From assembly GCA_963674745.2 (NCBI GenBank), contig CAXXDV010000001.1, forward strand, positions 352,001 to 416,000: DNA of 64,000 nucleotides, read 5' to 3'. The translations under genes were made by a program, and so were the position numbers. Of this stretch, positions 1 through 4,141 are shown piece after piece (within the stretch, counting starts at the first letter, position 1; the number at the start of each line of letters is the position of its first letter). The notes under the pieces are model-generated. The model was not told where the DNA came from. It did not search any database and worked only from the letters and a program-made list of their open reading frames with translations. The stretch is from Desulfosudaceae bacterium (lineage in GTDB: Bacteria > Desulfobacterota > Desulfobacteria > Desulfobacterales > Desulfosudaceae).

Positions 1-1631
1 CACGGCCGCCATCCTGGATAAACAAGGGCGTTTATGCGCCACGTGTGATGGAAGCGGACATCCGCGCCATACGGCGGTTATATCGTGAGAAGGGCTTTTA
101 TCATGCCCGAATAGAGGACGGCACAACCTTCAGTGATGACGGTTCCAGAGCAGATATCCTTATTGAAATTAACGAAGAGAATCAAGTATGGGTTTCATCG
201 GTCCGTTTTGATGGTTTGACGTCTGTACCAGAAGCGCAGGCCCTGCGGATGCTGCGGCTGTCTCCGGGAGTGGTTTTTAAAGACGAAGTCGTGCAGCGGG
301 ACCAGACCGAACTGGCCGCCCTGATTTCGGAAACCGGTCATCCCCATGTCCAGGTAAACTCGAGTGTAGCCATGTCTGACGACGGCAGGTCCGCGGATAT
401 CGTTTACCACATAAACGAGGGGCCCGAAGTAAAAATGGGCCGGACGTTTGTGACCGGCAATCTTCGCACCCGGCCGGGCATCATAAAACAGGAAATGGAA
501 CTGGCAAAAGAAGCGCCTTTCTCTCTGAAAAAACTGGTTAAAAGCCAGCAAAACCTGAGGTCTTTGCAGATATTCAAGTCGGTTGATTTTAAATCCGTAG
601 GCCTGAAAGAAAAAGAAGACCGCGTCCACCTGTTTGTAGAAACATTAGAAAATAAGCCTTTTTTTATCGAACTTGATATTGGTTACAACTCAGAACAGGG
701 CGGATGCGGGAAAGTAGCCCTGGGCGATCATAACCTGCTGGGCTTCAACCGGGACGGGTACTTCAGCGGGAAAATCAGTGAAACCGGTTATCGCGGCGAC
801 CTGGGCGTTCGTTCTCCTCGTTTTCTGTTTCCCCAAACATCTTCAGTCTTTAACCTGCATATCGAAAAATCAGAAGCTTTCAACCAGGACTTCGGCGTCA
901 GGACCCGGGGCGCCTCATTCGGCATCAACCGGCAGTGGCTACCGGCGTTATCCACCAGCATCGCGGCGGACACCGAAAAAAGGCGGCAGTACCCGCTCTC
1001 TTCGTCAGCGGCGGAAGATGAAATTTATGACAATCGCCAGACTGTTTCCCTGACGCCGGGTATTGTTTATAACACACGGGATAACAACATCATACCGACA
1101 AATGGCGTCATGGGCACATGTAATATAACCTTTTCCCGCGGCATCAACAACCAGCCGGATGATTTCATCAAATACCAGGGCTCGCTCCACTTCTACCACA
1201 CCCTTTTCGAACATATCACCCTTGCCGTAACCGGCAGGGCCGGATATATCGACCCTAAAAGCGCCTCAATCGCGGTTGCCGATGATCAGCTCTTCTTTTT
1301 GGGTGGCATATCTTCGGTGCGCGGATATCCCGAGAACCTGTTGCTGCGTGATGACAACGATGATCCGGTCGGCGGCCGCCGCTCTTTATCCGGGACCATT
1401 GAAGCCAGGATGCCGGTCAAAAACATTTTAAGCCTGGTCCTGTTTTATGATGCCGGCAAACTGGACCGCACCTACACACCGGCGGACACGGGAATCCGAT
1501 CTTCGGTGGGGCTGGGGCTGGGGTACCGGACACCGGTGGGGCCCTTGAGCCTTTATTACGGTTACAAACTCAACCGCAAACCCGGTGAAAGTTCCGGCCG
1601 GTTTCATTTTTCCATCGGCTATACGTTTTAG
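1..1631 (+). CDS. Omp85 family outer-membrane protein (BamA/TamA-like), 5' partial
   Basis: POTRA-like repeats (GNLRTRPGIIKQEM), VRGY motif, C-terminal FHFSIGYTF beta-signal. Frame is open from position 3, so the gene starts upstream of the window. Confidence 0.9.
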   Translation, partial: RPPSWINKGVYAPRVMEADIRAIRRLYREKGFYHARIEDGTTFSDDGSRADILIEINEENQVWVSSVRFDGLTSVPEAQALRMLRLSPGVVFKDEVVQRDQTELAALISETGHPHVQVNSSVAMSDDGRSADIVYHINEGPEVKMGRTFVTGNLRTRPGIIKQEMELAKEAPFSLKKLVKSQQNLRSLQIFKSVDFKSVGLKEKEDRVHLFVETLENKPFFIELDIGYNSEQGGCGKVALGDHNLLGFNRDGYFSGKISETGYRGDLGVRSPRFLFPQTSSVFNLHIEKSEAFNQDFGVRTRGASFGINRQWLPALSTSIAADTEKRRQYPLSSSAAEDEIYDNRQTVSLTPGIVYNTRDNNIIPTNGVMGTCNITFSRGINNQPDDFIKYQGSLHFYHTLFEHITLAVTGRAGYIDPKSASIAVADDQLFFLGGISSVRGYPENLLLRDDNDDPVGGRRSLSGTIEARMPVKNILSLVLFYDAGKLDRTYTPADTGIRSSVGLGLGYRTPVGPLSLYYGYKLNRKPGESSGRFHFSIGYTF

Positions 1632-1665
1632 AGGGTTCAAGGGGCCCATCGAATCCTTGAATCCT
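1632..1665. repeat. Short GG(A/G)TTCAAGG-type inverted repeat just after a stop codon
   Basis: AGGGTTCAAGG (1632-1642) vs CCTTGAATCCT (1655-1665); same family as 10987-11065. Confidence 0.6.
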
Positions 1666-1685
1666 TCAGAAGAGCCAGTCAACTA

Positions 1686-1714
1686 TTGAATTATGAGATC
1701 GTTTCTCATATAAT
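1686..1714 (+). promoter_or_regulatory. Sigma70 promoter with palindromic operator in the spacer
   Basis: TTGAAT(1686-1691)-N17-TATAAT(1709-1714); TATGAGA-N5-TCTCATA palindrome at 1692-1710. Confidence 0.7.
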
Positions 1715-1802
1715 AAATAGGATAATGCTTTTAACCCGCTTAAACGGTTACCACTTCTTTTCTGTAACGATTTCAGATTGATAAAAATAAAATGGAGGTT
1801 GC

Positions 1803-3155
1803 ATGGAGCACAAAGACGTCGTTAAAAAAGTAACTGAAATGCTGGTCAACGGTGACATCACCCCCTGGAATGCCGAAGAGGCGGCCGCGGAACAGGGGCT
1901 GGCCGTTCCGGAAAACATTACCGCCGGAGTCGAGGCGCGTCGGGCGTTTGTGGCGCATAAAACCGGGCATGAACTGCATCACCTGGTCATGCCGGAAAAG
2001 CCTTACCATGTCGCCTACCGCTGCCCCAAAGACAATACCCTGTGGACCCTGGCTGAAGGAGATATCTATACCAAGTGCACCCTTTGCGGGTCCGACCTGA
2101 AAATCCTGCCGGAAGACGAACGCCACAAACCCCTGGTCAACAGCTATATCGGCGGCGTGGAAGATTACTGCAGCTATTCCGGCCAGGTCTCTGTCAGCGG
2201 CGATGTGGAAAAAACCTTTCAAATCCTGCTGTGCTGGGGGCCGGGCGTGGGACACATGGGCATCGGCTCGGGCTGTTACAAGCTGAACAAATTCGGCCCC
2301 CTGGAAATCAAAGTCTCGGACTGGGGCATGGCCTGCCGTAACCTGGCTTTTGTGTTTGATGCGGAGACCGACCGTGAAAAGGCCCGCAACCTGATCCAGC
2401 AGAATCTGGACAACATTATCCCCAAAATCACCGAAAAGCATCTGGCCGACTGGAATGGCGAGATTGATTATGTGGATTTCTTATACAAACAGCACCATGC
2501 CGATCGTATCCTGCACTGCTGTTTTTATTCCCGGTTTGACAATCACCGGGGCCACGGCCAGACCTCCCATGCCACTGGTATGGCCAAACTTTTGATCGAT
2601 GACCTGTTCAAACAGAACAACATCCCCTGCCGGCTTTCAGTGGTCGGTATGGGACGGGACGGTGATCTCAAACCATCTCCCAGAAACCGGCGCGGCCGTT
2701 ATGTATCGGCCCAGCAGACTATTCCCGTGGCTGAATACGAAAAAATCATCGGCCGTCCCATCGAGGACTTTTTTTCCTATATTCACCTGGATCAACAAGG
2801 CGTGACCGAAGAAACCGGCTGGCCGGCCTATACCGGTATGGGCGGTGAAATCATTCCGGCCTTTTACCGGACCATGCGCTGCAATCCCCGGCCCTACATG
2901 GTGCCGAGTTTCCAGAAAGTATACGCCAGGATCGTCGGCAATGACCTGGTTTTCGGCGTGGAACTACCCAACGTTGAGGTTGGTATCACCTCCAGTCCGG
3001 AAGGCATTATTCCGCCAATCTCAAGAGAGATCCTGAAAATGTGGGGTATCGGCACAGCCAAGGAATTTGCCGCCGCTGCCGCGGCCATTACCCTGGGCGG
3101 TGAATTCAATTTTGCCACCCTGCACGTTCAGGAACGGATGTATACCGGAAAATAA
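1803..3155 (+). CDS. Divergent class I HMG-CoA reductase-fold protein with CxxD...CxxC zinc-ribbon insertion; canonical catalytic motifs absent
   Basis: SD GGAGG. Collinear resemblance to archaeal HMGR: MLVNGDITPW, EARRAFVAHKTG, NSYIGG, DLKPS..RGRYVSAQ, DLVFGVELPNVEVG, LGGEF. Confidence 0.7.
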   Translation: MEHKDVVKKVTEMLVNGDITPWNAEEAAAEQGLAVPENITAGVEARRAFVAHKTGHELHHLVMPEKPYHVAYRCPKDNTLWTLAEGDIYTKCTLCGSDLKILPEDERHKPLVNSYIGGVEDYCSYSGQVSVSGDVEKTFQILLCWGPGVGHMGIGSGCYKLNKFGPLEIKVSDWGMACRNLAFVFDAETDREKARNLIQQNLDNIIPKITEKHLADWNGEIDYVDFLYKQHHADRILHCCFYSRFDNHRGHGQTSHATGMAKLLIDDLFKQNNIPCRLSVVGMGRDGDLKPSPRNRRGRYVSAQQTIPVAEYEKIIGRPIEDFFSYIHLDQQGVTEETGWPAYTGMGGEIIPAFYRTMRCNPRPYMVPSFQKVYARIVGNDLVFGVELPNVEVGITSSPEGIIPPISREILKMWGIGTAKEFAAAAAAITLGGEFNFATLHVQERMYTGK

Positions 3156-3156
3156 A

Positions 3157-3870
3157 TTGTCCAGAATTATACCCATCCAAACGGCCACCCGGGTCGGGGA
3201 CATCACGATTCCCGGCCGGTATTGCCTGCCGCAGGGGACCGGGCCGTTTCCGTCGGTCATTGTTATGCACGGCAGTGACGGCTATAAGTTCAATCATTTG
3301 AAGATTGCCGAAAAACTGGCCGGCCAGGGTCTGGCGGCCTTTGTGCCGACATGGTTCGGCTACCATGAAACCCGGTCCCACTGGGATCACCTGCAACCGG
3401 AAGACATCCCGGCCACGATAGCCGACTTTCAACAACGCGCAAACGTGGACAAACATCGAACGGCCTTTCTGGGCGTCAGCCGGGGCGGCGGGTTGGCCCT
3501 GTATTATGGATCGCAGACCCCGGACACAAAAGCCATTGTCAACTACTTCGGCCTGACAGCCTGGGAAGGGGGGCTGGCCGAGTTGCCCCACCTGCCCCTG
3601 AACCCCGAAGACCACCTGGATTTTGTGCGGGATATTACCTGCCCCATCATCTCTTTTCACGGAGATGCCGACGATGTCGTACCCGTGACCAACACCTACC
3701 TGCTGGACAAAGTTTGCCGCCGATACGGTGTTACTCACGAATTCGTTATTTATCCCGGCATCAACCATTCGTTTATCTGGGATGACAGTGACAATGAAAA
3801 GTATGATCGAAATGCCCATAGGGATTCATGGGAAAGGGCCATAGGGTTTCTGAAGCAACAACTGTTTTAG
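3157..3870 (+). CDS. Dienelactone hydrolase family alpha/beta hydrolase
   Basis: VIVMHGSDG, GVSRGG nucleophile elbow, FHGDADDVVP, YPGINHSF. TTG start 1 nt after the upstream stop suggests translational coupling. Confidence 0.85.
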   Translation: MSRIIPIQTATRVGDITIPGRYCLPQGTGPFPSVIVMHGSDGYKFNHLKIAEKLAGQGLAAFVPTWFGYHETRSHWDHLQPEDIPATIADFQQRANVDKHRTAFLGVSRGGGLALYYGSQTPDTKAIVNYFGLTAWEGGLAELPHLPLNPEDHLDFVRDITCPIISFHGDADDVVPVTNTYLLDKVCRRYGVTHEFVIYPGINHSFIWDDSDNEKYDRNAHRDSWERAIGFLKQQLF

Positions 3871-3965
3871 GTTCGGGGTTCAGGGTTCGAGGTTCGGGGT
3901 TCAGGGCCATGGTGATTATATTGGACCTATGCCCTAAAACTTAACCACATAACCACATAATCACC
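3870..3965. repeat. Heptamer (GGTTCRG) tandem array followed by octamer (TAACCACA/TAATCACC) array
   Basis: ggttcggggttcagggttcgaggttcggggttcaggg at 3870-3906; cctaaaacttaaccacataaccacataatcacc at 3933-3965. Confidence 0.75.
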
Positions 3966-4041
3966 AAGACCTAAATCCCTGTTTTCCGGTACCGGGAACC
4001 ATCTACTTCCTCTGTTATTTGCTGTTATTTGTGTTATTTAC

Positions 4042-4070
4042 TTGACTTCTGTTCTGACACGCTATAGCGT
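4042..4070 (+). promoter_or_regulatory. Putative sigma70 promoter of the DEAD-box helicase
   Basis: TTGACT-N17-TAGCGT. Confidence 0.5.
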
Positions 4071-4111
4071 TGCATCAACAATTGGTGTTCCTGGTAGTAA
4101 TTAACCTGCGT

Positions 4112-4141
4112 AAGCCCCGGAATGACTCCGGGGCTTTTTTT
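4112..4141 (+). terminator. Intrinsic terminator within the helicase 5' leader
   Basis: AAGCCCCGGA-ATGAC-TCCGGGGCTT followed by a T-run. Confidence 0.8.

Follow-up and report, generated by a model that had tools for sequence, protein, structure and literature searches.

An HMG-CoA reductase-fold protein without the reductase machinery, encoded in a Desulfosudaceae bacterium and conserved in bacteria and archaea

We analysed a stretch of 64,000 nucleotides, hereafter the window, from a Desulfosudaceae bacterium (GenBank assembly GCA_963674745.2, contig CAXXDV010000001.1, positions 352,001 to 416,000 of the forward strand). At window positions 1803..3155 (+) lies an uninterrupted open reading frame (ORF) that encodes a protein of 450 aa and stops with TAA at 3153-3155; gene and protein are called X below. 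We find that X is a true homologue of class I 3-hydroxy-3-methylglutaryl-CoA (HMG-CoA) reductase (HMGR) which has kept the HMGR fold and in which, as judged from alignments, all four catalytic positions and both NADPH motifs are replaced. A Shine-Dalgarno sequence, GGAGG, can be read directly at 1794..1798 (+), with a 4-nt spacer to the ATG at 1803. A sigma-70-like promoter candidate, TTGAAT-17-TATAAT (10/12 matches), stands at 1686..1714 (+), 89 nt upstream of the start codon; its position is suitable, yet it is no evidence by itself, because the region has two promoter-like sites where 2.5 are expected from shuffled sequences. A look-up of sequencing data for window positions 1600-4100 gave no RNA data set and three rows of DNA type, all from one study. 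X is under purifying selection: the ratio of nonsynonymous to synonymous substitution rates (dN/dS) is 0.04-0.14 against five relatives of 74-80% identity, with dS near saturation. The initial annotation had read the intact frame, a good Shine-Dalgarno sequence and a strong promoter as signs of selection; the frame, the GGAGG and, through dN/dS, the selection hold, and the promoter does not count by itself.

The homology with HMGR could only be established with a family profile, because searches with the single sequence were sub-threshold or empty: a Pfam scan gave PF00368 at 19 bits, below the cut-off of 27, TIGR00533 scored 17.2 bits against a cut-off of 441.8, and phmmer found no match in the PDB. 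A profile built from 43 sequences of the X family matched the archaeal HMGR 6HR7 with E=4.3e-25 over profile positions 103-443, and human and plant HMGR at about 1e-12. Hence the correspondence with archaeal class I HMGR, at first drawn by eye, is real. Some relatives exceed the PF00368 cut-off on their own (P0122 with 46.6 bits, P0123 with 36.1 bits). Structure prediction gives the same picture. The AlphaFold2 (AF2) model of X reaches a predicted local distance difference test (pLDDT) score of 92.4 and a predicted template modelling (pTM) score of 0.91, and its top Foldseek ranks are held by HMGRs only (6HR8 with E=6.8e-20 and template modelling scores of 0.64/0.72; human HMGR at about 1e-16). 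Aligned with VIA-align to 48,161 chains, the model scored Z 30.6 with class I 6HR7 (327 residues, root-mean-square deviation 4.4), Z 26.2 with class II 6DIO over 337 residues and Z 24.0 with 7N7S; the next best match after the HMGRs, at Z 10, covers the ferredoxin-like small domain only. The structural comparison that had been proposed as a check thus returned the HMGR fold. The ESM Atlas returned only X's own cluster, described as 'hypothetical protein', with PF00368 on 33% of its members.

In the AF2 model, residues 1-63 (1803..1991, +) form three N-terminal helices (H3-16, H21-30 and H37-54), which the profile aligns weakly with residues 27-72 of 6HR7, the N-terminal helices of HMGR. They are followed by an inserted, beta-rich zinc knuckle at residues 64-102 (1992..2108, +). 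The first part of the large, substrate-binding domain occupies residues 103-180 (2109..2342, +); there VNSYIGG corresponds to ENVIG of HMGR, WGPG takes the place of TTEG, and Arg179 is invariant. Residues 181-278 (2343..2636, +) make up the small ferredoxin-like domain, equivalent to the NADPH-binding small domain (S-domain) of HMGR, in which R249-G250-H251 replaces the A-M-G-M of DAMGMN; ferredoxin-like structural matches found with VIA-align cover about residues 172-303. The second part of the large domain, residues 279-450 (2637..3152, +), ends at the very residue that aligns with the catalytic His866.

The residues of X were compared with those of HMGR by profile alignment and by a MAFFT alignment in which 23 X-type sequences were set against 26 canonical PF00368 proteins, the latter taken from genomes of the same phylum. 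The catalytic tetrad of HMGR consists of Glu559, Lys691, Asp767 and His866 in human numbering, as given in the excerpted text of PMC11948995, and the NADPH and HMG contacts used here are those listed in the excerpted text of PMC7503714. At the aligned positions, Glu559 (TTEG) has become Pro147 (WGPG), Lys691 (DKK) has become Leu289, Asp767 (GQD) has become Asn361 (R359-C360-N361) and His866 has become Lys450, the last residue of X. The loop Asp286-Gly-Asp288-Leu289-Lys290 (2658..2672, +) corresponds to the cis-loop D690-K691-K692, so that Asp690 and Lys692 persist in X, as Asp288 and Lys290, on either side of a leucine that replaces the catalytic lysine. Of the NADPH motifs, DAMGMN reads NHRGHG at positions 247-252, with contacts D653, M655, M657 and N658 changed and G656 retained, and GTVGGG reads ITSSPEG; the NADPH contacts Asn870 and Arg871 are without an equivalent in X, whose chain has already ended at the position of His866. 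Two new polar residues appear: His251 in place of Met657, within the new invariant motif Arg249-Gly250-His251 (2547..2555, +) at the former nicotinamide-side loop, and Glu349 in place of Asn755, at the end of Gly345-Met-Gly-Gly-Glu349 (2835..2849, +). The class-specific motifs are kept in 26/26 canonical sequences. The exchanges that the initial annotation had spotted (WGPG, NHRGHG, DLK, RCN, ITSSPE) are borne out by both alignments. It had also described the terminal histidine helix as absent: the histidine is indeed missing, but the helix is present in the model (H419-442), and the chain runs on to Lys450.

A different set of residues is conserved at these places. A word-indexed search returned 349 relatives of X at E<=1e-3; among the 120 matches listed, nearly all are 450-455 aa long and every named one is 'hypothetical', and about half of the relatives listed carry a precomputed PF00368 label. 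An exhaustive search, clustered at 50%, gave no more than 61 representatives, of which many are fragmentary. By scanning a genome collection we confirmed 92 loci and kept 80, and the residue census comprises 76 core X sequences and 8 sequences of a sister clade described below. R249-G250-H251 is found in 76/76 core members and the G-H pair in 84/84 sequences, so that, of the NHRGHG motif for which a conservation test had been suggested, only RGH is invariant. Also present in all 84 are R179, D286, D288, N295, R297, G345, M346, E349, P362, N390, E392, G394 and E400. Position 289 is Leu in 82 of the 84, with one Val and one Met (Leu 75 and Val 1 in the core alone), and position 147 is never Glu among the 76 core members. 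Across six phylum-level groups, 80/450 positions are at least 97% conserved. In 11-residue windows, conservation peaks at 288-298, 343-353, 384-394, 117-127, 427-437, 249-259 and 359-369, that is, in the segments aligned with HMGR active-site elements, and 288-298 is among the two most conserved windows (both 0.95). By alignment, the new invariant residues lie on the former active-site segments.

The other histidines and cysteines behave differently. H238 is limited to the Desulfobacterota and Pirellulaceae groups and C239 to the Desulfobacterota, and the group Q230-H231-H232, C240 and H441 is co-present in four clades (50 sequences) and jointly replaced in Aminicenantes and KSB1; the covariation of His231, His232, Cys240 and H441 follows one phylogenetic split and counts as a single event. 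A second metal site built from His231, His232, Cys240 and His441 was considered and set aside, as these residues are unlikely to form one site with the universal pocket: His231 and His232 sit apart from it, because they lie at the tip of a hairpin (E220-231/E234-245) and Arg249-His251 at the far end of its second strand. Hence 'HCC', for which a conservation test had been suggested, is clade-specific at H238 and C239 and replaced at C240 in Aminicenantes and KSB1, and the proposed catalysis by a His/Cys-bound metal finds no support, His251 being the only universal residue among the histidines and cysteines listed.

The insert is a further invariant feature of the core family. Profile positions 63-103 of X face only 4 residues of 6HR7, an insert of about 39 aa, which matches the roughly 35-aa CPKD...CTLC insertion recorded at first. 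Its pattern is C74-P-x-D77...C92-x-x-C95, and C74, C92 and C95 are found in 76/76 core members. At position 77 most of them have Asp (63), and the others Glu (5), Cys (4), His (3) or Asn (1), a choice of residues that fits a metal knuckle; in P0123 the insert reads CPKC...CRRC. The insert is modelled as short strands with pLDDT 93-96 (AF2), and with four candidate metal ligands in two knuckles on short beta strands it has the layout of a zinc knuckle, although no Pfam zinc-ribbon model matches it. The three cysteines and the aspartate probably form a structural zinc site. The knuckle looks structural because the sister clade, which lacks it in 8/8 members, has the same new pocket residues.

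Core members of the family were sampled from Desulfobacterota, Scalindua/Pirellulaceae, Thermoplasmatota archaea, KSB1 and Aminicenantes. In an IQ-TREE phylogeny of 49 rows (columns 106-450), the 17 core rows form one clade (support 100/100), and together with 6 sister rows they form a clade, also at 100/100, which a branch of 1.39 changes per column separates from the 26 canonical sequences; the point of attachment of this clade is unsure, long-branch joins being flagged. The Thermoplasmatota proteins (L048, L051 and L052; the L051 record is a 2.3-Mb chromosome) share 46-48% identity with the window protein, and their copies stand beside Planctomycete copies inside the bacterial radiation (100/100), which indicates transfer between domains. 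Within the host's order the distribution is patchy: X occurs in 9/151 sampled genomes and was found neither in a same-genus genome (99% complete) nor in a same-family genome. One X copy of the same order (G094:C204:3572-4915 (-)) contains a single in-frame TGA, which could reflect a pseudogene, a sequencing error or a recoded codon. The host genome itself, 99.96% complete, is without a mevalonate pathway: its sole PF00368 signal is X (18.8 bits, below cut-off), a search for the HMG-CoA synthase N-domain (HMG_CoA_synt_N) found no match (mevalonate kinases were not part of this search), and IspH of the methylerythritol phosphate (MEP) route is present with 299 bits.

The family appears undescribed, as first proposed: it is conserved, hypothetical in every source, and no paper on it was found in the literature. 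The nearest published precedent is FcrA, an HMGR-related fatty acyl-CoA reductase that uses NADPH and conserves the HMGR catalytic tetrad (Grossi et al., ISME J 2025, PMC11948995; here and below as far as the excerpted text of that article goes), and whose tree may show more HMGR-like clades. We found nothing in the literature that joins hydroxymethylglutaryl-CoA reductase with Scalindua, and the excerpted text of a preprint on archaeal fatty acid synthase (10.1101/2024.07.05.601840) contains no mention of HMGR, zinc, hydrolase or thioesterase.

One nucleotide after the stop codon of X, at a TTG at 3157, begins a serine hydrolase of the dienelactone hydrolase family (3157..3870, +; 237 aa), and the two genes are likely to be co-transcribed and translationally coupled. 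Its triad, Ser108-Asp172-His204, is invariant in 17/17 orthologues. Among solved structures the closest is 3F67, a putative dienelactone hydrolase (4e-14); there is weak similarity to type-I acyl-CoA thioesterases, and no NCBIfam model matches. The hydrolase appears to belong to a subfamily without a name of its own that accompanies X in Desulfobacterota, where 10 of the 16 loci that have it show a gap of 1-4 nt between the two genes. A complex prediction for the two proteins gave ipSAE values of 0.00 and 0.00 (mark 0.32), which speaks neither for nor against binding. An apparent fusion of X and hydrolase in locus L029 (659 aa) was discarded: X ends there in ...LYTGR and a stop codon, and in this GC-rich genome the long ORF arises as an artefact in another frame. 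That 659-aa frame (L029:8054-10033 (+)) overlaps X out of frame and has the downstream hydrolase as its tail, so that automatic callers could mis-annotate it. Further downstream in the window, a terminator-like hairpin with a T-run (4112..4136, +; 10 pairs, 7 of them GC; a consensus match only) is a possible end of the X-hydrolase transcript. It sits within the first codons of the longest ORF for a DEAD-box helicase (start 4122), and therefore the helicase probably begins further downstream.

Gene neighbourhoods were compared using ORFs from a simple caller, BLASTP clusters and annotated representatives. The counts cover the 76 loci with recovered X (L002, L003, L029 and L031 dropped out), and the hydrolases of the window, which the caller had missed, and of L029 were checked by hand. 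In the Scalindua-group (16) and Pirellulaceae (2) loci the order on one strand is thiolase, 3-hydroxyacyl-CoA dehydrogenase, X: the dehydrogenase is present in 14/16 and 2/2, the thiolase in 13/16 and 2/2, and two of the misses (L055 and L076) have a short flank or a partial gene. The best NCBIfam name is archaeal-type PRK06064 for the thiolase (428 bits, cut-off 420) and 3-hydroxybutyryl-CoA dehydrogenase for the dehydrogenase (346 bits, below the 408 cut-off). This Planctomycete dehydrogenase has a conserved N-terminal extension of about 95 aa, with CxxC...CxxC and then a beta-rich part (L043:6728-7030 (+) and 15 other Scalindua/Pirellulaceae loci). By eye it resembles DUF35, an identity that Pfam, a fold prediction and a PDB profile search did not confirm: generic Pfam zinc-ribbon models match weakly (E 0.003-0.06), the AF2 pLDDT is 54 and the PDB profile search gave nothing below E 0.6.

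Among the 32 Desulfobacterota-group rows, the hydrolase lies directly downstream of X in 16, to which the window and L029 are added by hand. A MaoC hydratase is found upstream of X in 7, a short-chain dehydrogenase/reductase (SDR) near it in 7, a divergent pair of the 2-hydroxyglutaryl-CoA dehydratase/benzoyl-CoA reductase (HGD/BCR) family in 6, a CoA-transferase of FadX/3-oxoacid type (below curated cut-off) in 5 and MarR in 6. For the SDR the top-ranking name is 3-hydroxybutyrate dehydrogenase (177 bits, short of the cut-off of 258), and single clusters add a tripartite ATP-independent periplasmic (TRAP) transporter, a sigma-54/PAS activator, acyl-CoA ligases and an Fe-type alcohol dehydrogenase. 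The HGD/BCR pair (410 + 352 aa) stands divergently upstream of X at L015:4421-6742 (-), with equivalents in L011, L012, L020, L022 and L035; it scores weakly against models of 2-hydroxyisocaproyl-CoA dehydratase, double-cubane reductase and benzoyl-CoA reductase B/C, and there is no activator ATPase gene among its annotated neighbours. Wax ester synthase/diacylglycerol acyltransferase (WS/DGAT) is absent from the annotated neighbour clusters, no search aimed at it having been made in these genomes. In the Thermoplasmatota locus L051 an alpha/beta hydrolase divergently adjoins X. In eight Aminicenantes-group loci (L075:4899-5288 (+) and 7 others) a protein of 129 aa, whose N-terminus resembles a signal peptide and which falls into no Pfam family, is encoded 158-455 nt upstream of X on the same strand; with these features it is probably unrelated and was not retained as a partner.

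The sister clade (P0158, P0161, P0166, P0168, P0177 and P0180-P0182) comes from DPANN-type archaea and others and is uncharacterised. Its alignment was used to scan metagenome contigs, and in 3/3 metagenome loci the gene order is SucC-like, SucD-like, X-like; in the 2/2 loci with downstream sequence, a canonical HMGR comes next (348 and 366 bits). Upstream of one sister operon (L113:251-2780 (+)) lie a weakly AMP-binding-like ORF and an ORF for an aldehyde-dehydrogenase/LuxC-like acyl-CoA reductase, which could extend its pathway. Taken together, the neighbourhoods converge on the node of 3-hydroxybutyryl-CoA and acetoacetyl-CoA. Enzymes of CoA thioesters surround X in two phyla and the sister clade, in keeping with the CoA-type substrate envisaged at the outset.

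We propose, with about an even chance of being right, that X is a working and not a decayed enzyme of the HMGR fold that would bind a small 3-hydroxyacyl-CoA-type thioester in the old pocket and act on it without hydride transfer from NAD(P)H. HMG-CoA, too, is a 3-hydroxyacyl-CoA. Most simply, the pocket would still accept a 3-hydroxyacyl ester, since the bacterial contexts handle small 3-hydroxyacyl-CoA and acetoacetyl-CoA and the sister clade adjoins a user of HMG-CoA. Asp288 and Lys290 would hold the hydroxyacyl moiety together with Arg179, whose role is assigned by analogy. Glu349, and His251 at the nicotinamide site, could then act on the thioester as nucleophile or general base, with a non-redox outcome, for example transfer of CoA from one hydroxy acid to another, hydrolysis of the thioester or a retro-aldol cleavage. 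CoA transfer, in which Glu349 would be the acyl- or CoA-carrying residue and His251 the base, is ranked first because it alone would explain the sister operon of ligase, X-like protein and HMGR without a futile cycle. In the host genome, X would be made together with the serine hydrolase, which would probably act just before or just after it. What survives of the initial interpretation is therefore the HMGR fold with its machinery replaced, the selection and the CoA context, and what falls away is His/Cys metal catalysis.

Several points weigh against this proposal. The CoA context supports it in two lineages and the sister clade only, because the other lineages have no conserved neighbours of this kind: an acyl-CoA neighbour occurs in just one of the Aminicenantes-group loci (22), as a dehydrogenase at a distance of 3.5 kb on the opposite strand (L062), and in none of the Thermoplasmatota (3) and KSB1 (1) loci. 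The neighbour counts are not independent, as kin share context, and in the window itself the hydrolase is the only gene linked to X. With the exception of the thiolase subfamily, the NCBIfam names behind the suggested substrate are sub-cut-off. Several Desulfobacterota clusters already have a CoA-transferase or an acyl-CoA ligase, so that a second CoA-transferase would be partly redundant. The closeness of His251, Glu349, Asp288, Lys290 and Arg179 to one another is deduced from the alignment with HMGR rather than from coordinates, and the NADPH-type small domain, which is retained and folds confidently, may bind a dinucleotide or another cofactor.

One alternative is that X is an NAD(P)H-dependent acyl-CoA/aldehyde reductase with migrated catalytic residues, which would convert a 3-hydroxyacyl-CoA into an aldehyde or diol and in which Glu349 would stand in for Glu559, Lys290 for Lys691, and His251 or a C-terminal Lys/Arg for His866. 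The two-domain architecture including the S-domain, the retained Asp288 and Lys290 and the acidic Glu349 and His251 at pocket positions would suit such an enzyme. Fe-type alcohol dehydrogenases occur close to X in at least 3 loci, and so does a tartronate-semialdehyde-reductase-like gene; both would fit an aldehyde product, and FcrA shows that the fold can change its acyl-CoA substrate (PMC11948995). But 4/5 DAMGMN contacts to NADPH are changed, the Asn870/Arg871 segment is missing, GTVGGG has given way to ITSSPEG, and all four catalytic positions are replaced, whereas FcrA and 26/26 canonical PF00368 proteins keep the tetrad-bearing motifs. We consider this alternative unlikely.

The loss of the tetrad could also mean that X is a non-catalytic subunit or regulator, a pseudoenzyme whose ligand would be a CoA ester or a partner enzyme such as the hydrolase, the thiolase or the dehydrogenase, the knuckle serving as docking element. 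DUF35, by analogy, scaffolds the archaeal thiolase/HMG-CoA synthase complex. The short spacers to the hydrolase, of 1 nt here and 1-4 nt in 10/16 hydrolase loci, would agree with such a role, as would the tight linkage to the Planctomycete dehydrogenase, which has its own N-terminal CxxC...CxxC extension. However, the 80/450 nearly invariant positions are concentrated on the former active-site segments, and the conserved set has the many Asp, Glu, His, Arg, Lys and Asn residues typical of a catalytically active pocket; moreover, Aminicenantes, KSB1 and Thermoplasmatota have no conserved partner gene, and the sister clade keeps the pocket set without the zinc knuckle. A purely non-catalytic X therefore seems rather improbable to us. 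That X is an ordinary HMG-CoA reductase or an FcrA-type fatty acyl-CoA reductase, merely divergent, has in its favour the PF00368 label on about half of the relatives listed and the passing scores of P0122 and P0123, and is nonetheless very hard to credit, given 19 bits against 27 for PF00368 and 17 against 442 for TIGR00533, a host with IspH and no HMG-CoA synthase, the 100/100 separation of X and its sister clade from the 26 canonical sequences, and the lack of both the tetrad and the 10-strand domain of certain FcrA.

Returning to the proposal of a non-redox CoA-thioester enzyme, a bolder form of it, which we hold to be doubtful, is that X and the sister clade make up a third functional class of the HMGR fold, independent of a cofactor, in which a Glu/His/Asp set would take over from the hydride-transfer tetrad and act on the CoA thioesters of small 3-hydroxy acids, moving or cleaving them. 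In its preferred version, X would be a new CoA-transferase of anaerobic sediment bacteria and archaea, through which free acids of the 3-hydroxybutyrate type reach the acetoacetyl-CoA node. In the DPANN version, scavenged hydroxymethylglutarate would be loaded onto CoA for the adjacent HMGR and the SucCD-like ligase would regenerate the donor; if true, reduced DPANN genomes would gain a salvage entry into isoprenoid lipid synthesis.

To our knowledge, the HMG-CoA reductase fold has long been regarded as a one-reaction fold. X probably represents a change of chemistry on it, because scaffold and pocket are kept and another strictly conserved set replaces every residue of hydride transfer; FcrA (2025), by its published description, is a case of changed substrate with the same chemistry. 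The family has spread by gene transfer over at least five bacterial phyla and two archaeal lineages of anoxic habitats. Beside enzymes of C4 hydroxyacyl-CoA in marine anammox bacteria and sulfate reducers, it may supply a missing step of ketone-body- or polyhydroxybutyrate-type carbon metabolism. Relatives of X that carry a PF00368 label can be mis-annotated as HMGR, which could wrongly suggest a mevalonate pathway in bacteria that have only the MEP route.

X can finally be set beside the systems that it resembles. With class I HMGR (EC 1.1.1.34; PF00368, TIGR00533; 6HR7/6HR8, 1DQ8) it shares the N-terminal helices, the large domain and the ferredoxin-like small domain, and it retains Asp690 (Asp288), Lys692 (Lys290), the RG(K/R) after the cis-loop, the E-x-G of PSIEVG and the (A/G)GE(L/F) helix. 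It differs from it at Glu559, Lys691, Asp767 and His866, which align with Pro/Thr, Leu, Asn and the chain end, in having xxRGHG for DAMGMN, ITSSPEG for GTVGGG and the knuckle of about 39 aa after the N-terminal helices, and in forming a separate clade on a long branch in a host without the mevalonate pathway. Class II HMGR (6DIO, from Delftia acidovorans) shares the fold; class II-like proteins of the same phylum keep EEPSV, DAMGAN, GND and the C-terminal GH (12/12), whereas X has none of these and is by profile score nearer to class I. The sister clade groups with X at 100/100, has a CoA-thioester context too and shares G-H, D-x-D-L/M-K/R, GM..E, P362, N390, E392 and E400 in 8/8 members; unlike X, it has neither the zinc knuckle nor Arg249, is only 22-25% identical, and is placed between a SucCD-like ligase and canonical HMGR and not with genes of beta-oxidation type. 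X was set apart from FcrA by the published description of the latter, and some canonical class-I-like rows may be unlabelled FcrA. X has no tetrad, and its N-terminus consists of three helices and the knuckle, with no counterpart of the 10-strand lipid-carrier (Lad) domain found at the N-terminus of certain FcrA, including characterised ones (PMC11948995); as that domain is limited to certain FcrA, its absence alone would not exclude membership. On its residues, then, X is neither HMGR nor FcrA, and FcrA, a relative of class I HMGR in bacteria without the mevalonate pathway that does not act on HMG-CoA, provides the precedent for repurposing this fold (PMC11948995).

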